DNA of 32,000 bases from Aeropyrum pernix K1 (lineage in GTDB: Archaea; Thermoproteota; Thermoprotei_A; Sulfolobales; Acidilobaceae). Position numbers and translations under genes: made by a program. The stretch is taken from assembly GCF_000011125.1 (NCBI RefSeq), contig NC_000854.2:1410001-1442000 (forward strand), given 5' to 3'. Positions 1,860-21,366 of the stretch are shown piece by piece; within the stretch, counting starts at the first letter, position 1, and each line of letters begins with the position of its first letter. The notes beneath the pieces were generated by a model that saw only the letters and a program-made list of their open reading frames with translations, ran no database searches and was not told where the DNA came from.

Positions 1860-2756
1860 GTGGGAGGGGGCTTCAGGTTCGACGAGGAGAGTCTTAGAGA
1901 GTTCGTCGACATGGTCAGGGGGCTTATGGAGGAGGAGAGGGAGTTCGTCATAGCCACTGTCGTGAGCGTTAAGGGCTCAGCAGCCGCCAGGGTGGGCTCT
2001 AAGGGCGTCATACTCCCCGACGGGACTGTCAGGGGGTGGCTGGGCGGGTGGTGCAGCGAGAACGCGCTGCTCACAGTCGCCCTTTCAGCCCTGAAGGAGG
2101 GCAGGCCCAAGCTGGTGAAGCTGGTCATGTCGGGGGAGACCCTTAAGCAGGTCTCCGAGGACGTTATAGAAGTGGGTACACCCTGCGGCGGCGAGGTGCT
2201 CGTCTACTTGGAGCCCGCCTACCCCAAGCCCCACATACCCATATTCGGCAATAACGAGGTGACGAAAGCCCTCTCCAGGCTGGCGCAGCTCCTCGGCTTC
2301 AAGGTCACGGTTATCGACCCCTCGGCAGGGCCGGAGGACTATCCGGGAGCCAAGGTGCTTGCCTCCCTAGAGGACGGGGGGGTCAGGCTTGACCGCCACA
2401 CCTACCCGGTCCTCGCCACCATGGGGAGGACGGATGTCGACGTCGAAGTACTGCTCAGGATTCTCGACAAGCCGGTTGCCAGAGTCTTCCTGGTAGCCAG
2501 CGTTAACAGGGCTGAGGAGGTCCTCAGGAGACTTGCAAGGAAGGGCGTGCCCCCAGACCTCCTGGAGAAGATTGAGAGCCCCGCCGGCATAGACCTGGGC
2601 GCAGCGACCCCTGAGGAGCTGGCTCTCAGCGTTCTCGCAGGCATAGTAGCGGCGAGGAGGGGCGGGAGCGGCAGGCCGATGAGGGAGGCCAGGGGAGACC
2701 CTGTGGCCAAGGTTGTCAAGGAGCTCAGGAGGAGGGCAGAGGCTACCCCCTCTTAA
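1860..2756 (+). CDS. XdhC/CoxI-family molybdenum-hydroxylase maturation factor
   Basis: The N-terminal block FVIATVVSVKGSAAARVGSKGVILPDGTVRGWLGGWCSE is followed by a Rossmann-like block PIFGNNEVTKALSRLAQLLGFKVTVIDP. This is the two-domain XdhC layout. Confidence 0.8.
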   Translation: MGGGFRFDEESLREFVDMVRGLMEEEREFVIATVVSVKGSAAARVGSKGVILPDGTVRGWLGGWCSENALLTVALSALKEGRPKLVKLVMSGETLKQVSEDVIEVGTPCGGEVLVYLEPAYPKPHIPIFGNNEVTKALSRLAQLLGFKVTVIDPSAGPEDYPGAKVLASLEDGGVRLDRHTYPVLATMGRTDVDVEVLLRILDKPVARVFLVASVNRAEEVLRRLARKGVPPDLLEKIESPAGIDLGAATPEELALSVLAGIVAARRGGSGRPMREARGDPVAKVVKELRRRAEATPS

Positions 2757-2964
2757 CCACCACAGCCTCCCCACGCCCCAGGCTCACAACCTCGACCATC
2801 CCCAGCTCGGAAAGCCTCTCCAACGTCAGTCTCACCTCCCCCTCCTGGCCGCCAGCATAGACGAACCTGATCCTCGAGCCAGGCCTAGCCCGCCTCAGGG
2901 ATGTGACAACAGCCGCGAAAACGCCTCCACAACGCCTTGCCTCGGCGACAAGATCCACCTCCAC
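2743..2964 (-). CDS. hypothetical 73-aa protein (weak)
   Basis: It is the only non-trivial ORF in the 424-nt gap between XdhC and PolB2. No recognisable motif. High GC3 is uninformative in this background. Confidence 0.2.
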   Translation of the reverse strand: MEVDLVAEARRCGGVFAAVVTSLRRARPGSRIRFVYAGGQEGEVRLTLERLSELGMVEVVSLGRGEAVVVKRG

Positions 2965-3180: not shown

Positions 3181-5094
3181 TTATGTATGGTGCTGGGGCA
3201 CGGGCTTGGGAAGCTCCCCCGCCGCCCTTTCGAGGAGCTTCATATAGTACTGCCTGTCTATGCTCCCAGGAGGCCCTAGCCATACTGGGTGCGGCCTCCC
3301 TCCACCCGCTACAACGTATTTCACCGTTGGCGTCTGAACGGGGCTTTTGAGCCACGCCCTCCTCCAGGGAGTGTTTCTAGAGGAGCCCGGGTCCACCCTC
3401 TTCTCTATGACAAGCTTCTCGACCGGCGGCTCCCCCTCCCTGAGCAGCCTCATATACCCATCTACCACCTTCCAAGCCCTCTCCACCGCCCCAGGCCACT
3501 CCCCGGGGTGCCTGGCCTCCGCCAGCCTCGCTATCGCGGAGGCCTGTGCCTCCCTCACTATCTCCGGCGTGTCCCGCCTGACGGCCGCTATCCCCTTCAG
3601 CTTCACACCCCCGCTCTCGAGGGCCCCGTAGTACTTGTTTACCGCGCCGTGGCCCCTCAGGGTCGGGGGTATGTAGAGCCACTTGTACTCCGCCTCTATC
3701 TTCACCGGAACACCGGTCCTCCTCTCGATCTCCCTTGCCACCTCCCCCGGGGGGCCGCGGGGCTCGACGGGCTGTATGAAGACGGAGTCGACGAGGGAGT
3801 GGATAACCCTGTACCCCATCTCCACAGCCGCCTCCTCGGCGGCGGCCAGGGCCCTCCTGGCGGCGGCCGTCACCGTCTCGTAGGCTGCTATGCTGCCGAA
3901 GAGGCTGTTCCTGAAGCCGAGGTAGCCGAAGCCCGAGACCAGTATCCACTTTATAGCCTCCTGCTCCTCCCCGGCCCCCCGCCTCCTCGCCTCCTCCCTG
4001 AGGTCCACCAGCCTGCCGAGGACCTCGGGCACCAGCCCCCTCCTATCCATACACACCCTGTGGCCCCCGTAGCCGGGCGCGGGGTCTAGGGTGTTCCCGC
4101 ACGGCGTGTCGACAGTCTCAGCGCTTATGTTGTACATCGCTATGAGCCTGGGGTAGAGGCTGGAGTAGTCCAGCTGTACAACCCCCCAGTAAACACCGGG
4201 CTCGGGCAGCCTAGCAGCCCCCGGCATGTCAGACTCCACAAGGCTCCTGAGGCTCCTGAACCTCTCGTGCCGGGGCGCACGCTCGTCCAGGAGGTACCTC
4301 CTCCTATAAGCCTCCCTAGCCTCAGCCGCGGTCAGCACCCTGCCTATAGGGGCTCCATGGGCCATTGTGTAGGGCAGCCAGGATATCCTCATCCACACTA
4401 TGAGGCCCCGAGGCCCCACCAGGTTCCTGTCGGGCTCGAACCACAGGTACTCACGGAACCGGGAGGAACCCTCAAGAATCAGCCTCACCGGGCTCCTGGC
4501 AACTACTACATGGGGCCTACAGCCCCTGAGCACATCCAAAGCCCCGTCAACACCACCCACCGCCTCCTCCCAGCCTCCACACACTACCCTGAACCGCCCA
4601 GGCTTCTCCAGGGGGCTGGATATGGGGCCGTGCCAGGAGTAGGCCTCCACCACAGCCAAAGACAGGACCCCATAATCATCGAGGGGGCCGCACACCCTGC
4701 CCAGGAGGCAGCCGGGGCGGAGGCCCAGGCGCCAGAGGACCTCCACCAGGGGGCCTGGATACCTGTTAACCCTCCTAGCAACGCCCCGGGCCTCGAGGGC
4801 CGAGGCCACACGCCCAACCCCTCTCCACCCGCCCTCCACAACAACGACCTCCACCAGCCTGTCATACCTGGGGGGAGACAGCCAGTCCTCCACCCAGGCC
4901 TCCACACCCTCCGCCTCCACGCCCCGGGCCAGGGTGCTGGCATCCGTGTTGATGGGGAGTAGGTAGGCGCGGGCCGCCGCCTCGACATTCAGGGCCTCGA
5001 GCCCCCCGCCCGGCGATGCTACTGTTAGCTGGAGCAGCCTGCCGCCGAGGGGCTCGGCGTCAAGTATGAGCCTCTCCCCCACCCTCCCCACCAC
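3181..5094 (-). CDS. polB2: family-B DNA polymerase, PolB2/Dpo2-like, exonuclease motifs degenerate
   Basis: Motif A is VVQLDYSSLYPRLIAMYNIS. Motif B is KWILVSGFGYLGFRNS. A KGIAAVRRDTPEI block is present. The motif C position reads YRVIHSLVDSVF. At 637 aa it has a short N-terminal half lacking a DxE ExoI motif. Confidence 0.85.
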   Translation of the reverse strand: MVGRVGERLILDAEPLGGRLLQLTVASPGGGLEALNVEAAARAYLLPINTDASTLARGVEAEGVEAWVEDWLSPPRYDRLVEVVVVEGGWRGVGRVASALEARGVARRVNRYPGPLVEVLWRLGLRPGCLLGRVCGPLDDYGVLSLAVVEAYSWHGPISSPLEKPGRFRVVCGGWEEAVGGVDGALDVLRGCRPHVVVARSPVRLILEGSSRFREYLWFEPDRNLVGPRGLIVWMRISWLPYTMAHGAPIGRVLTAAEAREAYRRRYLLDERAPRHERFRSLRSLVESDMPGAARLPEPGVYWGVVQLDYSSLYPRLIAMYNISAETVDTPCGNTLDPAPGYGGHRVCMDRRGLVPEVLGRLVDLREEARRRGAGEEQEAIKWILVSGFGYLGFRNSLFGSIAAYETVTAAARRALAAAEEAAVEMGYRVIHSLVDSVFIQPVEPRGPPGEVAREIERRTGVPVKIEAEYKWLYIPPTLRGHGAVNKYYGALESGGVKLKGIAAVRRDTPEIVREAQASAIARLAEARHPGEWPGAVERAWKVVDGYMRLLREGEPPVEKLVIEKRVDPGSSRNTPWRRAWLKSPVQTPTVKYVVAGGGRPHPVWLGPPGSIDRQYYMKLLERAAGELPKPVPQHHT

Positions 5095-5320
5095 TCCCCC
5101 TGCAGGACCTCGCCGCCTCCAGTATCATCGCTATGTAGACGGGCTCCATGGGGTCGCTCATCGGCACGTACCTGTAGGCCTCCAGGACCCTCCTGTAGCT
5201 GGAGAGCAGGTCCTCCAGGAGCCTCCTATCCTCGCCGCTCCTAAGGTGGCGGAGGAGCCTGCGGAGCCTCTCAACCTCGGCCTCTACAAGTACTCTTCCA
5301 GGGGCCGCTGTCCTGCCCAT
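5060..5320 (-). CDS. hypothetical 86-aa helical protein, overlaps both neighbours
   Basis: Arg/Leu/Glu-rich helical sequence (VEAEVERLRRLLRHLRSGEDRRLLEDLLSSYRRVLEAYRY) with AGG/CTC codon usage like the neighbouring genes. It overlaps the upstream RadB-like gene by 37 nt and the PolB2 start by 35 nt. Confidence 0.45.
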   Translation of the reverse strand: MGRTAAPGRVLVEAEVERLRRLLRHLRSGEDRRLLEDLLSSYRRVLEAYRYVPMSDPMEPVYIAMILEAARSCRGSGGEGGGEAHT

Positions 5321-5934
5321 AAGAGCCTCACCCCCAGCTCAGGCTCGGGGGCTAGAGCGGCCTGGGGCACAGGCTTGGCTGGGTGCTTCAGCAGCGTAGC
5401 AAACACCCCCCGCCCCCTCCACTCCGCCCTGGCTATAACGTGGACACTGTGGTGGTGGAAGTGGCCACCCTCCGGCCTCGCCCTGCCGAACTGGGTGACC
5501 CTGTTGGCCACGAACACCATGCTCCCCCGGGCCGCCGCCCTTAGGGCCCCCGTGATGCGGGTCAGAAGGCTGTAGGCCAACGGTGTCCTGGGGGCGAACC
5601 TGAAGGGGTCCACCACGACCACCGTCCCGGCGCCTGTTGAGGAGGCCTCCAAGACGAGGCTGGCCACGTCGTGCAGCCTGAAGGCCCGGGCGAACAATAT
5701 GTTACCGGGGTCTCCGCCCCTCATCCTGGATAGCCTGGCCGCCAGGTATGGGTCGAAGCCGCCGAAGTCCTGCACGTTGACAACCGCAACCCTACCCCTC
5801 CGTGAAGCCTCCGCCACAGCGGCGTGGGCAAGGAGCCTCGCCGCACCCCCATAGACCTCCACAACCCAGCCCGAGCTGGGCACCGGGCTCAGGAGCCTAT
5901 CCAGGCTGGGCACGCCGGTGACACTGGCCAACAC
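5284..5934 (-). CDS. RadA/RadB-like RecA-fold protein with the Walker A motif lost
   Basis: VTGVPSLDRLL...GWVVEVYGGAARLLAHAAV...VAVVNVQ...VVVVDPF...MVFVANRVT...ATLLKHP is colinear with archaeal RadB. The P-loop position reads GGAARLLA rather than GxxxxGK[ST]. Confidence 0.7.
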   Translation of the reverse strand: MLASVTGVPSLDRLLSPVPSSGWVVEVYGGAARLLAHAAVAEASRRGRVAVVNVQDFGGFDPYLAARLSRMRGGDPGNILFARAFRLHDVASLVLEASSTGAGTVVVVDPFRFAPRTPLAYSLLTRITGALRAAARGSMVFVANRVTQFGRARPEGGHFHHHSVHVIARAEWRGRGVFATLLKHPAKPVPQAALAPEPELGVRLLWAGQRPLEEYL

Positions 5935-6063
5935 CCCCGCACCCCGCTACGGGGAAAAGCCGTCCTGCTGATAAATGCGGCGGTGGGCTGTGCAGCCGCT
6001 AGCCCCCCACACCATCCCAAATCTAACCGGGGCTGAGCTGTAAGAAACCCGCCTACACCAGGG

Positions 6064-6798
6064 CTACGGGTATTCCACGGCGTGTGCTTCGGTCTTGAAT
6101 CCGGCCGGGGTCACAACCTCTGCCACAGCCTTGAACGGCGTCTCAACCAGGAACACAAGGTTCTCGTCAACGTAGTGGTAGGGCTTGAGGTCCACGGTCT
6201 TGAGGGCCAACTGGAATATGCAGAAGCCTTTGAGCAGGCTGCCCTCCCGGACGTCGAACTCAACCCAGAACCCCTGCCACCGAGGCTCTTCCCTGCCGAA
6301 GATCTCGTACACAGCCTTCTTGGTGTAGCAGGAAGCCAGCGGCCCCCCATACCCCAGCTCCACCGTCTCCCTGCTCAGGTTGGCCAGTGTAATGTAGATG
6401 TCCAGAAGCGCGAGATCATCCACGCCATCCGCCCAGGCCTCGGGGACCCGGTCGCACAAGGCGGCTGAACTGGAGCTGCAGTACTCCTCCAGGAGGGAGA
6501 CAACGTTCCTCAGAAGACTCTCGTCGGTGTAGAAGCTGTAGATAACACGGACCTTCAGCCCGTCCGCAGTAAACTCGTACTCAATAACCTTAGAGGGCTC
6601 GAAACCCTCGATAACGCTAGTCCTGCCAGAGAACTCGCCTGTAGGCAGCATAAAATCGGGGCTGGAGCTTCCAGGCGATAGCAGGAAGTAGGCCGCGGAG
6701 GCCACGGCTAGGAGAGCAGCTATAGCCGCTGCAAACAGCAGGAAGCCGCCTGGCCAGCGCCACTCGAGGATGGGCAAAGGAAGCCCCCAACGATACAT
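6064..6798 (-). CDS. hypothetical protein with N-terminal membrane anchor
   Basis: Hydrophobic N-terminal segment GGFLLFAAAIAALLAVASAAYFLL followed by a balanced soluble domain. No family recognised. Confidence 0.55.
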   Translation of the reverse strand: MYRWGLPLPILEWRWPGGFLLFAAAIAALLAVASAAYFLLSPGSSSPDFMLPTGEFSGRTSVIEGFEPSKVIEYEFTADGLKVRVIYSFYTDESLLRNVVSLLEEYCSSSSAALCDRVPEAWADGVDDLALLDIYITLANLSRETVELGYGGPLASCYTKKAVYEIFGREEPRWQGFWVEFDVREGSLLKGFCIFQLALKTVDLKPYHYVDENLVFLVETPFKAVAEVVTPAGFKTEAHAVEYP

Positions 6799-6930: not shown

Positions 6931-7521
6931 CTAGCCGTTGCCGCTTGTAACAAGTGCTCTGGTAAGGTCTACTAGGTTGTCCAGCTCTTCCTGCTGTATT
7001 TCAAAGGGGTTTACTCTGCTTCCCGCCCTCTCCAGGATGGCGGCTATTCTCTGCAAGGCTTCACCGTCTTCCGAGAGCCTATTTACAATGTACGGGTGCT
7101 CCTTCCCTGTGAGGTCTGCGAAATACACGGATAGGCTCCCGTATACTAGATACCATTTCTTATAATGTTCGCCGCCCTCCAAATCATACAAAGCCTTACT
7201 AAATGTTGCCAGCGCCTTCGAGTTAACCATCGCCTCGGCAACCAGGAAGCGCGTCCTATCAGGGTCACCGTTATAGCTGCTGGCAAGCGCCATAATGTCG
7301 TCAGCCAGGATGGAGACGTGGAATCCCGAACCCTCTACCAGGCTAACGGCAACCCTCTCTTCGGTTCTAACATACTCTAGGTTAGCGTACGCGCTAATAG
7401 CTAAAGATGTAAGTAACAAGCCAAACAGAACCTTAAACAGTGTAGCATTGCTAAGCCCATACAACACTCTGAACCCTGCTAATAATCTAAACAAATGCTT
7501 TGCCCATATCAACATTAACAA
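6931..7521 (-). CDS. hypothetical protein with N-terminal hydrophobic segment
   Basis: N-terminal hydrophobic stretch (LFKVLFGLLLTSLAISAYA) followed by a plausible helical soluble domain. It lies in the lower-G+C block. Confidence 0.5.
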   Translation of the reverse strand: MLMLIWAKHLFRLLAGFRVLYGLSNATLFKVLFGLLLTSLAISAYANLEYVRTEERVAVSLVEGSGFHVSILADDIMALASSYNGDPDRTRFLVAEAMVNSKALATFSKALYDLEGGEHYKKWYLVYGSLSVYFADLTGKEHPYIVNRLSEDGEALQRIAAILERAGSRVNPFEIQQEELDNLVDLTRALVTSGNG

Positions 7522-8393
7522 AATAGGGATGAAGGGACACTATTATAAACCACAATAGCTCTATCAGCAAAAACACGGGGAAAAGCTGCCGCTAATCGTG
7601 TCTCCCGAGCTGGCTGGGGCATACAGGAATTTTTAGGCGGAAGCTTGGTAGGGCTTAGAAGCTAAAAGTAGTTGTAGAACGGAGCTATGCAGAATTGAAC
7701 AACCGCCTTTGACATATGTCATCTTCATAGTTTTGAGTTCACAATGATACTGTGTGTAAAGCTCTGGATGAAAGAGAAATGATAATATGCATCATGAAAT
7801 CGGCTGATGCGCCACGGGACGATTACAGGAGGCAGGAGATGCTAGACGTAGCCCAAAGGCTAGATGTCCATGGCAAGGCAGAGCCTTAGGGGCGAGAAAA
7901 CGCGGAGGGTATACCATAACATGATAGGTAGGTCTAGTTCTAGTATGGTTGATTACAGGACGCTAATTCATGCAGCCAATGGATTTTGAGGGCGTGGAGA
8001 TGTGAAGCTGATGTGAATATACGACAGTACGATATAGCTAGTAGACGCTGTTAATAATATTTTTAATAGAATACACAAGAAGAACTTGCCCCCTCCAAAG
8101 GTGGCTTGGCGGAGACAGGGAGGAGACTGCGAAAGTGAGGCATGGGCAAGCTGTGTACCATGCGTGAAGCGTGTTTAGCACCAGGTCACTGCGTATTTGG
8201 GAGAGCGTATCAAGGAAGAGCTGGGGACCCGAAAAGAAGGCTATGTAATGGTAAGCTTAGTGTTGTGCTAAAGGATAAAGTCCTATGGCGTCTCCTGTCC
8301 TAGCCCATGATGACTAGCATATAGTTGAAATAATGGGAACCCTGATCGGAGCTTTCGAGATTGTTTTCACTCAAGTAGTTCGGTAACGAATTT

Positions 8394-8398
8394 AAAAA
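8394..8398 (-). terminator. T5 tract just downstream of the adh stop codon
   Basis: Plus-strand AAAAA (TTTTT on the minus strand) lies 9-13 nt after the adh stop codon (8407..8409). Oligo-T tracts are the usual archaeal termination signal. Confidence 0.45.
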
Positions 8399-8406
8399 GA
8401 AGAGAG

Positions 8407-9486
8407 TTAGGGTATCAGGACTGCCCTGCCTAGAACTTCACCTTTCTCTAGCCTCTCAAGCACATCGTTTATTTCATCTAGCTTGTGGATATCAACCTCT
8501 ACCCTGACCTTACCCTGAAGGGCTAACGTGACTAGCTCATGGAGCTCTACATAGTTTCCTACTAGGCTTCCTTCAAAGGATACCTCAGAGGATATCACCC
8601 TGATCGTGGGGAATCTAAGCTCACCCCCATAGCCTACGATGATAAGCCTCCCCATCCTCCCTAGCAGGTATGGTGTATAATCGACTGTAGCCTGAGAGCC
8701 TACGAAGTCCATTGCAACGTTAACTCCTCTCCCCCTGGTAAGCTCCATGACCTGCTTTACAGGGTCTCGTCTAGCGTCAACCACGTGATCCGCTCCAAGC
8801 CTCTCGGCCAGCTTTAGTTTTTCTTCCTTAACGTCCAGTGCTATCACCGTCGCGGGTGTCATAACTTTAAGTAGCTGAACTGCAATATGACCTAATCCTC
8901 CCACGCCCACTATAGCGACGTATGCGCCGGGATAGAGGGTTCGGGCGGCCTTCTTAACAGCCCTATAAGCCGTTATCCCAGCGTCCGCTAGAGGGGCCAT
9001 TTCAACAAGTTTCTCCCTGCTAATATCCTTAGGCAGCTTTATCACAGACCTGTGCGAGGTCCTCATGAACTCTGCAAATCCACCATCGATATTAAGTCCT
9101 GGGAACTCTAGGTTCTCGCAGTGCATATCCTCACCAGCTCTACAGGCTAGACAGGTTCCATCTGTGACCGCCGGGTGAAGAATTACCGGGTCCCCCTTCT
9201 CTAAGCCTTCCACTCCTTCGGCAACTTCTTCAATATACCCGACGTTCTCATGGCCTAAAGTGTAGGGTAGCTTAGGCTGCAATAGCTCATGCCACATTCC
9301 CTGGACAAGGTGGAGGTCCGTATGGCATACGCCAGCGCCTGCAATCCTTACAATAACGTCAAATCTACCTTCTAGCCTCGGATAGTCGACATCCTCTATC
9401 CTCAACGGCTTGTTATACTCGTGGAGCCTGGCAGCTTTCAAACGCTCCACCCCTAGGCTCTGCGAGAAGTCTTGCTCTATTCTCAC
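8407..9486 (-). CDS. adh: zinc-dependent (medium-chain) alcohol dehydrogenase
   Basis: GAGVCHTDLHL and GHENVGYIEEV zinc-ligand motifs, the CLACRAGEDMHC structural-zinc loop, and the VGVGGLGH Rossmann motif. From memory the sequence matches A. pernix ADH. The native start may be the internal TTG that gives MKAARLHEY. Confidence 0.95.
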   Translation of the reverse strand: MRIEQDFSQSLGVERLKAARLHEYNKPLRIEDVDYPRLEGRFDVIVRIAGAGVCHTDLHLVQGMWHELLQPKLPYTLGHENVGYIEEVAEGVEGLEKGDPVILHPAVTDGTCLACRAGEDMHCENLEFPGLNIDGGFAEFMRTSHRSVIKLPKDISREKLVEMAPLADAGITAYRAVKKAARTLYPGAYVAIVGVGGLGHIAVQLLKVMTPATVIALDVKEEKLKLAERLGADHVVDARRDPVKQVMELTRGRGVNVAMDFVGSQATVDYTPYLLGRMGRLIIVGYGGELRFPTIRVISSEVSFEGSLVGNYVELHELVTLALQGKVRVEVDIHKLDEINDVLERLEKGEVLGRAVLIP

Positions 9487-9522
9487 CTTTGACAGAGCAC
9501 TCTTTTAAGCATTCCACTTATG

Positions 9523-9528
9523 TTTAAA
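9523..9528 (-). promoter_or_regulatory. TATA-like element (TTTAAA) upstream of adh
   Basis: AT-rich divergent intergenic region. The element lies 37-42 nt upstream of the GTG at 9486. Confidence 0.35.
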
Positions 9529-9552
9529 CCGTACAAAAGCTAAACAAAACAC

Positions 9553-9559
9553 TTTATAT
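9553..9559 (+). promoter_or_regulatory. TATA-like element (TTTATAT) upstream of the amidohydrolase gene
   Basis: It predicts a transcript start near 9581..9586, where the amidohydrolase frame opens (9585). This fits a leaderless or near-leaderless mRNA. Confidence 0.35.
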
Positions 9560-9602
9560 GAGATCTCTAAGAAGTATTAATTAGTGGCGTTGGGGTGGGA
9601 CT

Positions 9603-10697
9603 ATTATCATAGTTGAAACACCCGATGGAAAAAGACATGAGATCCTAGTTATAGACTATCATACCCACATATGGAGAGGTGAGAGAGATAACTGGCTAAG
9701 GCCAAACCTGGCTAAGGGCTGGATGGACTGCTTCTACGACTATCACAAGTCCTTAAGCCCCGACGAGTATGTTTGGGACTACGAAGAATTCCTCTACTAC
9801 GGATCCGATAAGTTCATTAAAGATGTTTTCGTCGATGGAGGAGTCGATATAGCGCTTTCGCAGCCAGCATATCTCCAGTTTTTCTTCAGAGAACCATTCG
9901 GCAACACTAACGAGTTCGGGACTATGGCTCTAAAGTATCCCTACAGGTTCATCATAGGTACAAGATGGGATCCTAGGGAAGGAGAAGAGGGTAAGAGGCA
10001 GTTGGAGGAGGATGTTAGGAAGTATAGGGTTAAGCCGTGGCAGATGAGACATGTTAAGCTCTATACTGCTGAGTGGAAAGAGGTTAATGGCGGTATTAGC
10101 AGGGGTTGGAGGCTTGATAGCCCGCAAGCTTTCGAATTCCTCGAGTTCAATAGGGAGCTCGGTATAGATATACAAGTCCCCCATAAAGGCCCTACGGTAT
10201 GGCCTCTAAGTAAGGACGCATTTGATGTACACGACGTAGACACGGCAGCATCCTCGTTCCCTGAGCTAAGGTTCGTAGTCACCCACGTAGGACTTCCAAG
10301 GATAGATGATTTTTCATGGATAGGAGTCCAGGATAAAAATGTGTATGCAGGCCTAGCAGTGGCCACAGCGTTTATCAGGAAGAGGCCAAAATACTTTGCA
10401 GAGATAATGGCCGAGCTACTCTTCTGGCTGGGGCCAGACAGGATAATCTTCGGGAGCGACTACGCAATCTGGCATCCCAAATGGATTATCGAGGACTTCA
10501 TAAAGTTCGAGCTACCCAGGGATTTAGAGAGCGAATATGGTGTCGAACTCACACTTGAGAATAAGAAGAAGATTCTAGGCGAGAACGCCGCCAGACTATG
10601 GGGTATTGACGTGGAGGAGGCTAAGAAGGCTGTGAGGGAGGATCAGATAGCGAGTAGATATGGCGCCAAACCTCGAGTCTTTAAGGTTGAGGGCTAA
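9603..10697 (+). CDS. amidohydrolase-2 / metal-dependent TIM-barrel hydrolase family protein
   Basis: The listed ORF starts at ATG 9723, but the same frame is open from 9585 and encodes TIIIVETPDGKRHEILVIDYHTHIW, which contains the family's HxH metal motif. There is no in-frame ATG/GTG/TTG upstream, so the start coordinate is provisional (ATT/ATC/ATA at 9603..9611). Downstream, VVTHVGLP and IFGSDYAIWHP are typical family blocks. Confidence 0.75.
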   Translation: MIIVETPDGKRHEILVIDYHTHIWRGERDNWLRPNLAKGWMDCFYDYHKSLSPDEYVWDYEEFLYYGSDKFIKDVFVDGGVDIALSQPAYLQFFFREPFGNTNEFGTMALKYPYRFIIGTRWDPREGEEGKRQLEEDVRKYRVKPWQMRHVKLYTAEWKEVNGGISRGWRLDSPQAFEFLEFNRELGIDIQVPHKGPTVWPLSKDAFDVHDVDTAASSFPELRFVVTHVGLPRIDDFSWIGVQDKNVYAGLAVATAFIRKRPKYFAEIMAELLFWLGPDRIIFGSDYAIWHPKWIIEDFIKFELPRDLESEYGVELTLENKKKILGENAARLWGIDVEEAKKAVREDQIASRYGAKPRVFKVEG

Positions 10698-10721
10698 AGA
10701 CCTCGTAGCTGTTAGAGGGGA

Positions 10722-11600
10722 TTGTGTCTAGCTGTAGATGGATGGTTTGAGGGTATTAGGTTGGTTTCGAAGAGCGATATTGTCAGGGCCTTAGAGGCTG
10801 TTAGGGATCCTGAGCTAGACATCCCCATAACCGAGCTGGGTCTGATTGACTCGATCACCACCGGCAGCGGGGAGGTCGTTGAAGTGACTATAAGGATGCC
10901 CACGTATTGGTGCTCCCCGAACTTCACCTACATGATCGTTGAAGACGCTAGAAAGGCTTTGGAAAAGCTGGTAGGTCCTGCTAGGGTTAAGGTGTTTCTT
11001 AAAGATCACCACGATGGGGAGAGGATCACGAAATGCGTTAACTCCGGGCTAAGATTTGAGGAGTGCTATCCGGAGGAGGCTGGAGAGGGGTTAGAAGGGT
11101 TAAGGGCTAGGATGAGGGAGAAGGCGTTCCTAGCCAGGCTACACGGGCTAATCAGGATCCTGTTAAGGAAGGGTCTGACCCTCGGGGAACTTGAGAGGCT
11201 GAGACTAGAGGACCTAGAGGTTTCCCAGGGGTCAGTGACTATTCGGGGGGCGAAGCGTATCACACTTGAGTCCATGGAAGCTGACCGCATAGTAGAGTAT
11301 ATCGGGATGCTAAGGGAAGCCGGAGTGACTCGAGGCCCTCTCTTAAGACGGAACTTAAGAGGCGAGCCCTTAGGAAAGGAAAAGATGGAACTACTCTTTA
11401 GTAGGGCGAGACTCACAGCAAGCACCCTATCCTTCAATGCCGAGCTATGTAAGCTATTGATGAATACCCGTAAACTCTCTTCTACTCCTCGAGGAAAAAT
11501 TAGAGGTCGAGCTATTGCTCCAGACCCTGCTCAGCACCCTGACTATCCTGGGTATGAGACAGCAGGGCAAGAAGCTCCCGAGGATCAGGCTTCTCCCTAG
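10722..11600 (+). CDS. DUF59 (MIP18/PaaD-like) domain protein with long C-terminal extension
   Basis: The N-terminal IVRALEAVRDPELDIPITELGLIDSI...VEVTIRMPTYWCSP is the DUF59 signature. The remaining ~190 aa are unassigned, and the last ~50 aa are low-complexity. Confidence 0.6.
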   Translation: MCLAVDGWFEGIRLVSKSDIVRALEAVRDPELDIPITELGLIDSITTGSGEVVEVTIRMPTYWCSPNFTYMIVEDARKALEKLVGPARVKVFLKDHHDGERITKCVNSGLRFEECYPEEAGEGLEGLRARMREKAFLARLHGLIRILLRKGLTLGELERLRLEDLEVSQGSVTIRGAKRITLESMEADRIVEYIGMLREAGVTRGPLLRRNLRGEPLGKEKMELLFSRARLTASTLSFNAELCKLLMNTRKLSSTPRGKIRGRAIAPDPAQHPDYPGYETAGQEAPEDQASP

Positions 11601-11662
11601 CCCCCGTCAAACGTCTAACAAACTCCAGCGAATTCACCCACACTACAAAGTTATGTACTTCC

Positions 11663-11968
11663 TTAGGGAGGCAGCATGCTTAAGAAGAAGGCGGCTATCA
11701 CACCCGCCCCTAGGGTCCCCCCGGCCAGCACCGGCACCAGGAGGGCCCAGGGCCCTAGCTTCCTATCGAGAAGCCATGATACGAGGGAGAGGAGGCCCCA
11801 GACGAGCAGAGAAGGGGGTAACAGCAGGGCCATCTCCACTACTAAGATGTAGAACCCCGGATCAATTGTGAGGCTGAGATCCCTGAGGTCGAGCAGGATG
11901 AATGTTAGAGCAGCGCCCAGAACGTAGAGGATGGGGGTGCTGTACCAGGTCAGCCTCAGCAACCTCAA
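11663..11968 (-). CDS. small membrane protein (about 3 TM segments), hypothetical
   Basis: Three hydrophobic stretches (ILYVLGAALTFILL, LLLPPSLLVWGLLSLVSWLL, ALLVPVLAGGTLGAGVIAAFFL). TTG start. Confidence 0.4.
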   Translation of the reverse strand: MRLLRLTWYSTPILYVLGAALTFILLDLRDLSLTIDPGFYILVVEMALLLPPSLLVWGLLSLVSWLLDRKLGPWALLVPVLAGGTLGAGVIAAFFLSMLPP

Positions 11969-12028
11969 GCAAGAGACCCCCGGGAAAAACCGTAATTTAC
12001 AGGTTTACTTACCGTTTCTTATAATGCA

Positions 12029-12418
12029 TTAGTACCTGACGTCCATGTACATCTTGAGCGCTGTGATGGCAGCAAGCATGGTCTCCGCGTTTGTGGGCAG
12101 CGGCCCGGGGTACTCGGGATCCATGTCGTTGCCCTCGGTTATAAACTCTAGGTAGTCTGGCCTGAAGCCTGCGACCTCGAAGCCTCCGTCAGGCGCCACG
12201 TTATAGGCTACTATGAAGCCGCCGGTGTGGTCGTTTTAAACATGTACTCCCACGTGTCCGAGGATCATGTAACAGCCGCTCCCGCCCCACCGGGCTTTTA
12301 GAAGGACTTTCACCCAATAGGCGTTACTTGGTACCCTAGAGTTTATTGAGGCATAAAACGACTTAGCAGCCAAGAGGTGAACAGGGGGCGAGATTGATGA
12401 AAACAACAGGAGGTAAAT
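12029..12418 (-). pseudogene. interrupted ORF (in-frame TAA at 12236..12238), unknown family
   Basis: My hand translation of the minus strand gives ...LLLFSSISPPVHLLAAKSFYASINSRVPSNAYWVKVLLKARWGGSGCYMILGHVGVHV*NDHTGGFIVAYNVAPDGGFEVAGFRPDYLEFITEGNDMDPEYPGPLPTNAETMLAAITALKMYMDVRY*. The protein-like reading continues through the stop in the same frame. There is no ATG/GVG start; the only candidate is TTG at 12404..12406. Confidence 0.4.
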
Positions 12419-12721
12419 TCATCTGTTAAGTTCCTTCTAGGCCTGTTAGTAATGCTATACTTGCCTATTGTAAACGCTATTGTTACAACACAAAAATCAG
12501 GATTTAATAAGAGATTAGTAATAAATTTGAATAAGGCCCTTACGGCAAAGCAGAGTCGTCACTTAAAAGTAGGCTTGGAAAACCACACTACAAAGGTTCT
12601 GATACTTAACCCCGCTCAGCCTTAAATAGCGCTCTATGAAAGCCATCGGGTCTGCCCTATCCACCTTCAATTATGAATACGCGGTCCCTTTGATTGGCTG
12701 GGATGACTTTAGGATGGTTTG

Positions 12722-12800
12722 TGGGGCCCGGGCCGGGATTTGAACCCGGGACCTCCGGATCCACAGTCCGGCGCTCTATCCAGGCTGAGCTACCCGGGCC
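12722..12800 (-). tRNA. tRNA-His: tRNA-His (anticodon GUG), with encoded G-1 and 3' CCA
   Basis: The reverse complement is G-GCCCGGG-UA-GCUC AGCCUGGAU AGAGC-G-CCGGA CUGUGGA UCCGG-AGGUC-CCGGG UUCAAAU CCCGG-CCCGGGC-C-CCA. It forms a full cloverleaf. The anticodon loop CU-GUG-GA gives His. The extra 5' G opposite C73 is the tRNA-His hallmark. Confidence 0.9.
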
Positions 12801-12983
12801 ACCCTTGTTCTCGGCCGAGTCATACTACGGTGCTCCTCGTGGCTCGGGATAGCAGATCATCGCCCCCAAGGGGGGTTGTGGGGGGCTCAACCCGGGCCCC
12901 AGCCGTCTATCTATGAATGCCTGCTGGAACCTATATAGATCTAGCGTCCCCCGGATCCCTGGGTCTTTAGCCGTTGTTACCTA

Positions 12984-13550
12984 GTGGTTGTGGATGGTCG
13001 GGGTTGTTGGGTGTTGGTTGGGGAGGTCTATACCCTGGGCCACGGTTCGAGGGGGTTGGGCGAGATTGGGGATCTCGTCGAGTCTGTGGGGTCTAGGGTT
13101 GTTGTTGATGTGAGGAGGTGGCCTCGGAGCAGGCGTCACCCCTGGGCCTCCAGGGATACTCTGGAGGGCTTCCTCAGGGGGCGCGGCGTTGCTTACATCC
13201 ACCTGCCAGCCCTGGGCGGCTATAGGTCTTTCGGGAGGGATGTTGACCCGTCGCTGAGGGCCTTGTTCTCCTGTTTCGAGTCGGAGGGGTTCAACGCCTA
13301 CGCAGCCTACCTCGCCTCCAGCCCGGCGGCGTGGAGGGGGCTCGAGGTCATAGCCTACCTCGCCGAGGCTGGGGCTAGGCCTGTGGTTATGTGTAGCGAG
13401 AGGCTGCCGTGGAGATGCCATAGGAAGGTTGTGGCAGACTGGCTCTACGCCAGGGGCTTCAGGGTTCTCCACATACTCGATCGAGACAGTATCGTGGAGC
13501 ACCGGGGGACCAGGTGCGCCTCGATGCTGGGCGGGCCTAGCAGTGTTTAG
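12984..13550 (+). CDS. DUF488-family protein
   Basis: VYTLGHGSR...VVVDVRRWPRSRRHPWASRDTLEGFL...GVAYIHLPALGG...VVMCSERLPWRCHR matches the conserved DUF488 blocks. Confidence 0.8.
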   Translation: MVVDGRGCWVLVGEVYTLGHGSRGLGEIGDLVESVGSRVVVDVRRWPRSRRHPWASRDTLEGFLRGRGVAYIHLPALGGYRSFGRDVDPSLRALFSCFESEGFNAYAAYLASSPAAWRGLEVIAYLAEAGARPVVMCSERLPWRCHRKVVADWLYARGFRVLHILDRDSIVEHRGTRCASMLGGPSSV

Positions 13551-14121
13551 GGGCTGGCGAGACTCGGGCTTTGGAGACGAACGGGTTCCCGGCTATGTAG
13601 AACCTGAGCGGGAGCTCGAGGTCCTCGGAGACGCCGACGCGCCCGGAACACGCTACGCGGAAGCCCTCTACAGCTTCAGGGTTCTCCCAGAGCGTCAAGG
13701 GCGAGCCCCGCTCGTAAACCGGAGCCCCGTCCACACCCCTATCTATGGACAGGGCTCTGGCTAGCCTCCCAGGCCCTATGGGAGGGGGGTCTAGGCGGGG
13801 CGGCTCGAGGGGCTGGCAGGACCTCAGCAGCACCGCCCCAGCCATACCCTCGCTGTGTGCGACTATGTTGAGTAGCCACTGCCTATGCATACCATAGACC
13901 AGGGCTCTCCCGGGCTCCCCATAGAGGGCCCTCCATATCCTTCCCCTCCCCCTCCTGGCCCTGGAGGCGGGGTCGCACTCGCCGAAGTAGGCCTCAGCCT
14001 CGGTAACCATGCACCTCATACATGCTCCGCTGGCGCAGGAGACGAGGATTTTGCCCAACAGCTCTCTAGCCACAACGTCGGGCTGTCTATAGTAAAAACT
14101 CTTGGGTAGAAGCCTACCCAC
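13537..14121 (-). CDS. DNA-3-methyladenine glycosylase (AAG/MPG family)
   Basis: FYYRQPDVVARELLGKILV...VTEAEAYFGECDPASRA...GRALVYGMHRQWLLNIV...GPGRLARALSID fits the Pfam 3-methyladenine glycosylase (MPG) pattern. Confidence 0.85.
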   Translation of the reverse strand: MGRLLPKSFYYRQPDVVARELLGKILVSCASGACMRCMVTEAEAYFGECDPASRARRGRGRIWRALYGEPGRALVYGMHRQWLLNIVAHSEGMAGAVLLRSCQPLEPPRLDPPPIGPGRLARALSIDRGVDGAPVYERGSPLTLWENPEAVEGFRVACSGRVGVSEDLELPLRFYIAGNPFVSKARVSPAPKHC

Positions 14122-20397: not shown

Positions 20398-21366
20398 TCA
20401 CGCTGTTCGGATACAGTCTTCAGGGAAGGCTAGTCTTCTGATATATTCGGCTAGGTATCTAGCCCTTGCTGGCTCTAGCCTATAGGAGTTGTCCGGGAGT
20501 CTGGAGGCTAGGCCCATAGCCTCTGCTATATATATTATCCAGGCATAGCCTGGGAGGTCCTCCGGTGATATTTTACTCTTTGAAGCGAGTGCTTCCACGG
20601 CATCTTCCAGGAGATGCTGGTCTACCTGGGGTGAGAGCCTTATTATGGGGATGAATACTGGCTTCCTCGCGGCTTCATGTATATAGTAGGCGGCGGATGC
20701 TCCTGCCAGGGAGCCGGCTAGGAGTAGGGCTCCCGATTCCGGCTTGAAGCCGCCAGTTAGGTTCAGCAAAACAACGTTACCTCTACCAATCCTAACCTTT
20801 ATGTCGCAGTAAGCCTCACGCACGAGGTTTGATAGCCCTTCGAAGAGCCTATCAAAAACACCTAGACCGGTTACCTGTTTTGAATACGTTTTTACATGGC
20901 ACAACCTTTCTAGAAAACCTTTTACGATCTCTGCCGAAACTCTGCCAGCATGAGTATCGGTGTGGTAGAGGATTGCCTCGTCAAGCATGGTAACACTACA
21001 ATCTTTAGTGCTCTGACTTATGAAATACTTCATCGCATTGAGTTCTGCGGAGTAGGCGAAGGGAGCGTAGCTTACAAGGGTCTCGACAACCTTCCATGCC
21101 TCGCTTCCTCGAGACAGCCTCCTACCACACTCTACATCATCCATCCTGCCAGGATCTATGCAGGGTTTAAGAGTCTCTAGAACATCTTTCAATACCGTGG
21201 GCTCTAGGCTCCTAACCGGTATGGAGCATGTGTTTTCTTTAAAGCATTTTGAAACTACTGTGTATGCGTTTCTGAGGACGCTTGTTCCTACTGAAATCAG
21301 GTGAGTGTAACCGCCCAAAGCAGCTGCCACCCCCACTTTCCTAATCGTTTTTGGCCTATTCTCCAA
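20398..21366 (-). CDS. CARF-domain protein, Cas_APE2256 family (possible Crn1-type ring nuclease or cOA-sensing regulator)
   Basis: THLISVGTSVLRN (21280..21294 encodes SVGTS), SAELNAMKYF, LNLTGGFKPES (TGGFK at 20743..20757) and AAYYIHE are the CARF/APE2256 signature blocks. The C-terminal ~70 aa could be a winged-helix-like domain. TTG start; an internal GTG is also possible. Confidence 0.85.
   Translation of the reverse strand: MENRPKTIRKVGVAAALGGYTHLISVGTSVLRNAYTVVSKCFKENTCSIPVRSLEPTVLKDVLETLKPCIDPGRMDDVECGRRLSRGSEAWKVVETLVSYAPFAYSAELNAMKYFISQSTKDCSVTMLDEAILYHTDTHAGRVSAEIVKGFLERLCHVKTYSKQVTGLGVFDRLFEGLSNLVREAYCDIKVRIGRGNVVLLNLTGGFKPESGALLLAGSLAGASAAYYIHEAARKPVFIPIIRLSPQVDQHLLEDAVEALASKSKISPEDLPGYAWIIYIAEAMGLASRLPDNSYRLEPARARYLAEYIRRLAFPEDCIRTA

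Follow-up and report, generated by a model that had tools for sequence, protein, structure and literature searches.

Three overlapping genes in Aeropyrum pernix K1

We analyzed a window of 32,000 nucleotides from the 1.67 Mb chromosome of Aeropyrum pernix K1 (NC_000854.2, positions 1,410,001 to 1,442,000), in which three open reading frames (ORFs) form a compact cassette on the minus strand. As given in the ORF list, these are 5284..5934 (216 aa, GTG start), 5060..5320 (86 aa, ATG start) and 3181..5094 (637 aa, GTG start); positions are those of the window, and all genes and sequence features of the cassette described below are on the minus strand. Their products are exact matches to A. pernix K1 database entries, namely APE_2235 (WP_148679160.1, hypothetical), WP_148679159.1 (hypothetical) and a protein named 'DNA polymerase II' (BAA81241.2 / WP_010866876.1). 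The three genes are very probably the A. pernix K1 copy of the known iRadA–PPB2–PolB2 operon, the 'PolB2 mutasome', in its type 1a gene order, and they are referred to here by these published names.

The genes overlap one another. iRadA and PPB2 share exactly 37 nt (5284..5320), as was originally predicted; the 35 nt predicted for PPB2 and PolB2 (5060..5094), however, applies to the longest PolB2 ORF only and becomes 23 nt with the RefSeq start. In-frame GTG codons at the beginning of PolB2 are found at 5094, 5091 and 5082, with RefSeq starting the protein at 5082 (633 aa) and the annotation of Aeropyrum camini at the position giving 636 aa. For iRadA, RefSeq uses a TTG at 5931 (215 aa), and the longest ORF begins with a GTG at 5934 (216 aa). 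The overlaps persist whichever start codons are chosen. Since the GC content of the cassette region is 65–67% and many long spurious ORFs occur in its other frames, ORF length alone proves nothing here, and it is conservation that does so.

The block upstream of iRadA, CCGCCGCATTTATCAGCAGGACGGCTTTTC (5954..5983), is shared without change by A. camini. Within it, a TATA-like ATTTAT (5971–5976) stands about 38–45 nt before the iRadA start codon, and the block is the putative operon promoter.

iRadA has a Rad51-like core without a P-loop

The iRadA product (5284..5934) was characterized from its ORF and exact database match, together with structure prediction, Foldseek and profile searches. It had no Pfam match and no usable NCBIfam match, and a profile search against the PDB reached RecA only weakly (E = 0.019), with the RecA P-loop GQESSGKT aligned to a segment of iRadA that has no P-loop. 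An AlphaFold2 (AF2) model built with 17 homologues had a predicted local distance difference test score (pLDDT) of 87.9 and a predicted template modeling score (pTM) of 0.88. Foldseek searches with this model recovered RAD51, DMC1 and RadA structures (E 1e-13 to 1e-10, query TM-score (TMq) 0.70–0.77). The 216-aa protein spans only the core of these ~310-aa Rad51/RadA targets and is without their N-terminal domain.

The degenerate Walker A region, E26-VYGGAARLLAHAAVAEA (5806..5859), is the segment aligned to RecA GQESSGKT; it is without GK[ST] and at the Walker A position reads E-V-Y-G-G-A-A-R-L-L. This loss is a property of the family, as GK[ST] was absent across 66 iRadA sequences. The Walker B Asp is present in A. 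pernix and was kept in 32 of the 66. A word-indexed homology search had retrieved only 7–16 close relatives of iRadA, and the wider family was collected by iterating a hidden Markov model (HMM) on the ORFs of PolB2 loci.

The protein had been described as a P-loop-less paralogue of RadA/RadB. The RecA/Rad51 fold and the loss of the P-loop were both recovered, but identity with RadB was rejected: the NCBIfam RadB model NF006861 matched residues 144–192 only, with 17.5 bits against a cut-off of 278 (E = 0.002), far below the family threshold, and there is no P-loop. The protein belongs instead to the iRadA group.

Residues that are near-invariant in the 66 sequences include E26, H37, P110, N144, P154-E-G-G, H160/H162 and K183-H-P. 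Several of these fall into the segment P-E-G-G-x-[FY]-H-H-H-x-V-H, found at 5440-5472 (residues 155-165). Together they make up a family-specific signature, each position of which is kept in roughly 55–65 of the 66 sequences despite the loss of the ATPase motifs, and they may serve as a surface for interactions, DNA binding or metal binding.

At its C-terminus iRadA carries Q209-RPLEEY-L216 (QxxLxxYL; 5287..5310), a motif resembling the PCNA-interacting protein (PIP) box and a candidate for PCNA binding. The tail containing it (residues 206–216) has a pLDDT <50 and is predicted to be disordered. Of 53 full-length iRadAs, 50 have a core of the form [LIM]xx[WY][LIVMFAT] among their 25 C-terminal residues, compared with 11% of control windows. 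Because 28 of the 31 iRadAs without the 37- or 49-nt overlap with PPB2 described below have the core as well, it appears to be selected in its own right. Clamp-binding motifs in iRadA have been reported previously (PMC11791011).

PPB2 is a small three-helix protein with a conserved N-terminal arm

The second gene (5060..5320) encodes an 86-aa protein that we assign, from its ORF, exact database match, AF2 model and homologues, to PPB2 (arCOG07300 / DUF8156). The orthologue in A. camini is annotated as DUF8156/PF26485. The A. pernix protein had no usable Pfam or NCBIfam match, and neither its sequence nor its structure gave a significant PDB match. Its AF2 model (pLDDT 82) consists of an extended N-terminal arm followed by three helices (residues 8–23, 29–48 and 59–75), in agreement with the small helical partner that had been proposed.

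The arm, M1-G-R-T-A-A-P-G-R9 (5294..5320), includes the MGRT motif with Arg3 and Arg9 and was recognized from its sequence and the family motif. The MGRT motif of the PPB2 arm was defined in PMC11791011, and among our homologues the form (start)GR[TSN]xP opens essentially all PPB2 sequences. Already in a single phmmer pass, the window protein reached the PPB2 ORFs beside PolB2 in two Sulfolobales loci (L069 and L072). The ratio of nonsynonymous to synonymous substitution rates (dN/dS) of the PPB2 core was 0.06–0.44 in 12 close pairs, which indicates purifying selection on the 86-aa ORF.

PolB2 retains palm motifs and has no detectable exonuclease domain

The third gene (3181..5094) was identified as PolB2 from its ORF, Pfam and NCBIfam matches, homologues and database names. 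Its match to Pfam DNA_pol_B is confined to residues 297–568 (E = 2.5e-14), and the top NCBIfam model is NF004416, a type-B polymerase (E = 1.1e-62). No exonuclease-domain Pfam match was obtained at E<=0.1. Because PolB sequences of solved structures in the PDB align with the protein from about residue 257 to 567 only, its N-terminal and exonuclease region is unrecognizable by sequence; in a sequence-level test, residues 1–260 contained a single DxE, at 12–14 within the N-terminal domain.

Motif A (LDYSSLYP, 4150..4173) contains the catalytic D309, and motif B, recognized by alignment and sequence, is K382-WILVSGFGYLGFRNSLFG (3895..3951), also given as KWILVSGFGYLG. In motif C (HSLVDSV, 3781..3801), the first residue of the DxD is Leu and not Asp (LVD, not DTD). 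In a 20-sequence alignment D309, motif B and the second Asp of motif C (D436) were all invariant. The protein aligns with the PolB2 genes of Sulfolobales loci (L069, L072, L075 and L076), and in Sulfolobales PolB2 motif C is likewise degenerate (IVD or IID, the latter in S. islandicus). The original prediction of a family-B polymerase with palm motifs and without proofreading motifs was thus borne out, with motifs A and B intact, motif C degenerate and no exonuclease domain detectable.

A loop of PolB2, F219-E-P-D222-R223 (4426..4440, in WFEPDRNL), matches the D(K/R) motif; a homologue in locus L001 has DK there. According to published models, this loop is predicted to contact the PPB2 arm, and the beta-alpha motif preceding it is predicted to bind iRadA (PMC11791011). 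The C-terminus of PolB2 (…LPKPVPQHHT) showed no PIP-like motif on inspection by eye.

The cassette is conserved beside PolB2 and under purifying selection

To place the cassette among its relatives we used 80 PolB2 loci from other archaea, collected by a PolB2-alignment scan with one genome per species, and searched within a few kb of each PolB2 with partner HMMs seeded solely from the window proteins and their close homologues. PPB2 was found beside PolB2 in 69 of the 80 loci, from Thermoproteota to haloarchaea, and iRadA in 58. The association of both partners with PolB2, on which the original prediction had staked its case, is therefore widely kept. Loci without one or other partner were mostly contigs that start at PolB2, or belonged to lineages (haloarchaea and others) with a known extremely divergent iRadA.

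With strands given relative to PolB2, the order found in the window, iRadA+ PPB2+ PolB2+, occurred in 27 loci. Other arrangements were PPB2− iRadA− PolB2+ (10 loci), iRadA− PPB2+ PolB2+ (9 loci), iRadA− PPB2− PolB2+ (6 loci) and PPB2+ PolB2+ iRadA+ (3 loci: two Sulfolobales and one 'Crenarchaeota' metagenome-assembled genome (MAG)). In 47 colinear PPB2-PolB2 pairs the spacing ranged from −128 to +156 nt, and 23–27 of the pairs overlap. The genes flanking the cassette (6064–6798 and 6931–7521 upstream, and a 73-aa ORF downstream) had no matches near PolB2 in the 80 loci, so the unit consists of these three genes. Between A. pernix and A. camini, dN/dS was 0.07 for iRadA, 0.23 for PPB2 and 0.17 for PolB2.

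The comparison with A. camini SY1 (L083) also revealed a stretch of ~1.3 kb, at ~4140-5460, with 95–100% nucleotide identity between flanks of 68–93%. It takes in the 3' part of iRadA, the complete PPB2 gene and one third of PolB2 at its 5' end; the pattern of identity suggests recent recombination between the species. The very low synonymous divergence of PPB2 in this pair (dS 0.07, against 0.47 for iRadA) belongs to this regional block, and we rejected its reading as a constraint specific to PPB2. A draft assembly of A. camini (L082, GCA_001316065.1) contains iRadA as a fragment of 156 aa and PolB2 as fragments of 136, 351 and 141 aa. Pseudogenization was considered and rejected here, as the unrelated DUF488, NTP_transf_3 and VWA_CoxE genes are split in the same assembly; these are assembly frameshifts.

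A conserved dual-coding junction joins iRadA and PPB2

The 37-nt overlap (5284..5320) encodes the two terminal motifs at once. In the iRadA frame it reads TTA TGG GCA GGA CAG CGG CCC CTG GAA GAG TAC TTG TAG, that is, L-W-A-G-Q-R-P-L-E-E-Y-L-stop, of which W-A-G-Q-R-P-L-E-E-Y-L-stop falls within the overlap. In the PPB2 frame, one base earlier, it reads ATG GGC AGG ACA GCG GCC CCT GGA AGA GTA CTT GTA, or M-G-R-T-A-A-P-G-R-V-L-V. The family motifs sharing the junction are W-x-G-Q-x-x-L-x-E-[WY]-L-stop for iRadA and M-G-R-[TS]-x-P-x-x-R for PPB2.

The same register is kept in 23 loci, 15 with a 37-nt overlap (besides the window, those listed are L001, L002, L009, L010, L013, L037, L042, L045-L048, L051, L054 and L064) and eight with a 49-nt overlap (L005-L007, L021, L022, L027, L030 and L049). 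The lineages represented are Acidilobaceae, Desulfurococcales, Staphylothermus, Caldisphaera and several deep Thermoproteota and 'Nitrososphaerota' MAGs, and the register is also present where the iRadA–PPB2 pair runs divergent from PolB2. A Shine-Dalgarno-like GGGGGTGAGG (5326..5335) lies inside the 3' end of iRadA and ends 5 nt upstream of the PPB2 ATG. A Shine-Dalgarno-like 4-mer at −18..−4 was found at 21 of the 23 overlapping junctions, compared with 29% of background windows. In the window, GGGGGTGAGG adds one more constraint, the third, to this stretch of iRadA.

We tentatively raise the possibility, well short of a firm expectation, that the conserved junction is functional rather than incidental and could link the translation of iRadA with that of PPB2 or determine the ratio between them, the two proteins being predicted to be needed at 1:3. 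If it is functional, two interaction motifs would be locked into co-evolution, and the junction could inform how subunit stoichiometry is set. Fusions of iRadA with PPB2 have been reported from other genomes, and only a single −1 frameshift separates the present arrangement from them. Neither PMC4104785 nor PMC11791011 uses the word 'overlap' in its main text, and the latter, which dates from 2025, contains neither 'frame' nor 'translational coupling'. The conserved dual-coding junction is apparently undescribed, and as a small detail it is the only, and modestly, new element of the cassette.

Assignment to the PolB2 mutasome and proposed mechanism

An operon of PolB2 with a ~90-aa helical protein (arCOG07300) and inactivated RadA-family proteins was predicted by Makarova and Koonin (2013) and Makarova et al. 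(2014), who proposed a complex acting in damage repair or in the regulation of replication (PMC4104785). Timinskas, Timinskas and Venclovas (January 2025; PMC11791011) gave the partners the new names PPB2 and iRadA and listed gene orders including '1a iRadA–PPB2–PolB2'. They modeled a PolB2–iRadA–PPB2(3) heteropentamer for 40 species, in which they identified the MGRT arm, a motif in PolB2 resembling the RadA oligomerization motif and clamp-binding motifs mostly on iRadA, and they drew an explicit parallel with Pol V and RecA. The claim of the original prediction that no such complex had been described does not hold, as the operon has been known since 2013/2014 and the complex was modeled and compared with Pol V in January 2025. 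Its proposal of a damage-tolerance complex analogous to Pol V with RecA coincides with the published model (PMC4104785; PMC11791011), itself a prediction.

Every defining feature of this system that was tested at the sequence level was found in the A. pernix cassette, which is an ordinary member of an already known system and no new kind of system. Functional information comes mainly from Sulfolobus, where Dpo2 is damage-inducible in an Orc1-2-dependent manner (PMC6061795); in two further studies, Dpo2 is described as required for damage-induced mutagenesis and as an extender of mismatches and lesions (PMC7390963, PMC8764526). Co-expression induced by DNA damage is established for Sulfolobales.

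Several observations weigh against this assignment. The complex is an in-silico prediction, and experimental proof of it, from whatever organism, was still being asked for in a review of 2026. In the available part of the supplementary tables of PMC11791011, A. pernix is not among the entries listed. None of the genes published as enriched neighbors (orc1/cdc6, SRAP or DUF72) is present in the window, and the block upstream of iRadA has no exact copy of the Sulfolobus damage-response element ANTTTC, only the near-matches GGTTTC and CTTTTC. The tail of iRadA ends in Y-L and not in the F-F of a canonical PIP box.

The gene identities, motifs, conserved linkage and purifying selection given above are observations made on the genes themselves; the steps that follow are drawn from Sulfolobus genetics and biochemistry and from the published AlphaFold models, which are models of other species. 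The three genes would be expressed as a single transcript from a promoter upstream of iRadA, with PPB2 translated from its own Shine-Dalgarno site within the 3' end of iRadA. The predicted assembly joins single copies of PolB2 and iRadA with a trimer of PPB2. In it, PolB2 would bind iRadA by a loop that mimics the RadA oligomerization motif, and one PPB2 MGRT arm is modeled close to the DNA, inserted between PolB2 and iRadA; published models of PolB2 with active RadA, by comparison, scored below about 0.4. Tethering to PCNA may be provided by QRPLEEYL in the tail of iRadA that is predicted to be disordered. The resulting complex would be a proofreading-free, damage-tolerance 'extender' polymerase and a source of damage-induced mutations.

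In Sulfolobales, the PolB2 mutasome is responsible for damage-induced mutagenesis. Proteins of A. pernix are hyperthermostable and often crystallize well, and the compact, overlapping type-1a operon with its clear PIP-like iRadA tail makes this cassette a reasonable candidate for reconstitution, its practical value being modest.

Alternative explanations

The trio could instead form a complex for replication regulation or alternative initiation, or for the resolution of stalled forks, in which PolB2 would be mainly structural, a catalytically weak scaffold. A replication role was proposed in PMC4104785 on the basis of the arORC2 association in Euryarchaeota and degenerate catalytic motifs, and the window PolB2, without the first Asp of motif C, would be in line with a scaffold. 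However, Asp309, Lys382 and Asp436 are invariant across the family, and the S. islandicus Dpo2, which has IID in motif C, is reported to be an active polymerase needed for damage-induced mutagenesis. With no orc gene near the cassette in the window either, we consider this explanation unlikely.

Transport of the cassette as cargo of a mobile element (a casposon, a provirus or an integrative element with a protein-primed or family-B polymerase) appears less probable still, and we would be surprised to find it correct. No integrase, Cas1 or other mobile-element gene was present among the neighbors scanned, the flanking genes are syntenic in A. camini, and we also count against it that the two upstream genes and the downstream gene do not accompany PolB2 in the 80 loci. 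The GC content of the cassette exceeds that of much of the window, as cargo might, but the cox-like neighbors are equally GC-rich. What speaks for mobility is the PolB2 phylogeny, which suggests frequent horizontal transfer among archaea, and the block of 95–100% identity with A. camini, which suggests recombination. Finally, in DNA of 65–67% GC with long spurious ORFs, where neither small protein has a Pfam match, the 86-aa ORF or the overlaps might be chance features or annotation artifacts, leaving only PolB2 as real. This reading is already refuted by the conservation data and its probability is close to nil: PPB2 homologues with the MGR[TSN]xP start stand beside PolB2 in 69 of the 80 loci, dN/dS is <0.45 in close pairs, an identical RefSeq entry exists, the AF2 model is confident, the overlap register is kept in 23 loci and the iRadA model has confidently the Rad51 fold. 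A PolB2 mutasome operon remains by far the best account of the three genes.

Surroundings of the cassette in the window

Downstream of PolB2, at a distance of 217 nt, the 73-aa ORF (2743-2964, minus strand) overlaps the 3' end of a convergent XdhC gene. Two other Aeropyrum assemblies annotate this ORF as a gene, and it has no Pfam or NCBIfam match. Upstream, an interval of ~5.5 kb (~7,520-12,980) with a GC content of 0.47–0.54 lies between the gene for a 196-aa protein (6931–7521) and a DUF488 gene (12984–13550). It contains genes for a Zn-alcohol dehydrogenase (8407–9486), an amidohydrolase (9723–10697) and a protein with an FeS-assembly domain (10722–11600). The corresponding interval in A. 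camini is only ~1.5 kb long with two small ORFs, and the A. pernix interval looks like a strain-specific island.

Besides the cassette, the window contains one DNA-repair gene, which encodes a methylpurine-DNA glycosylase (PF02245, E = 4e-41; 13537-14121, minus strand), lies ~7.6 kb upstream of the cassette and is near the cassette in A. camini as well. A protein of the Cas_APE2256 family (PF09651, E = 1.6e-38; 20398-21366, minus strand), evidently APE_2256 itself, is encoded between two ABC-transporter clusters; none of the neighbors of this gene that were scanned was a cas gene.

Comparison with known systems

The closest known counterpart is the Dpo2 locus of Sulfolobus/Saccharolobus islandicus, which has the same three components: a PolB2 whose motif C is degenerate and whose exonuclease domain has decayed, a PPB2 with an MGRT arm and three helices, and an iRadA consisting of a Rad51 core without the N-terminal domain and without Walker A. 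The two differ in organization. In Sulfolobales the order is PPB2–PolB2–iRadA (type 3a) and PolB2 is shorter (~570 aa), whereas the A. pernix genes overlap, with one stretch encoding both the iRadA tail and the PPB2 arm, and no orc1/cdc6 neighbor or ANTTTC was seen. A clamp-binding motif on iRadA or PolB2, rarely on both, is a feature of the published mutasome, and the A. pernix cassette may follow this pattern, with a candidate PIP-like motif on iRadA and none seen by eye at the PolB2 C-terminus. RadB, the euryarchaeal RadA paralogue, is similar to iRadA as a short RecA-fold protein without the N-terminal helix-hairpin-helix domain of RadA, but RadB keeps the Walker A and B motifs and the A. 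pernix protein is without a P-loop.

More distant systems offer functional parallels. In Escherichia coli Pol V (UmuD'2C–RecA–ATP), an error-prone polymerase is bound to a RecA-family protein through an oligomerization-like motif, the N-terminal arm of a small subunit reaches toward the active site, and the sliding clamp is used (PMC11791011). Pol V differs in its Y-family polymerase, in employing the active cellular recombinase RecA where the mutasome has a dedicated, inactivated paralogue, in a UmuD' dimer that is unrelated to PPB2 and in carrying the clamp motif on UmuC; the analogy is functional only. The bacterial operon of ImuA–ImuB–DnaE2 likewise pairs a mutagenic polymerase with a degenerate RecA-like protein, but its DnaE2 belongs to the C family, ImuB is an inactive Y-family scaffold and there is no PPB2 homologue, a case of convergence and not of homology. 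The catalytic subunit in A. pernix is of family B, hence neither of the Y family (UmuC) nor of the C family (DnaE2). Eukaryotic Pol zeta (Rev3–Rev7(2)–Pol31–Pol32) does share with the PolB2 mutasome a B-family, exonuclease-dead, damage-linked 'extender' polymerase in a heteropentamer, but its accessory subunits are unrelated and it has no RecA-fold partner. Apart from the PolB2 mutasome, no multisubunit B-family translesion polymerase is known from prokaryotes. The A. pernix cassette is analogous to Pol V, ImuA-ImuB-DnaE2 and Pol zeta without being a member of any of these systems.

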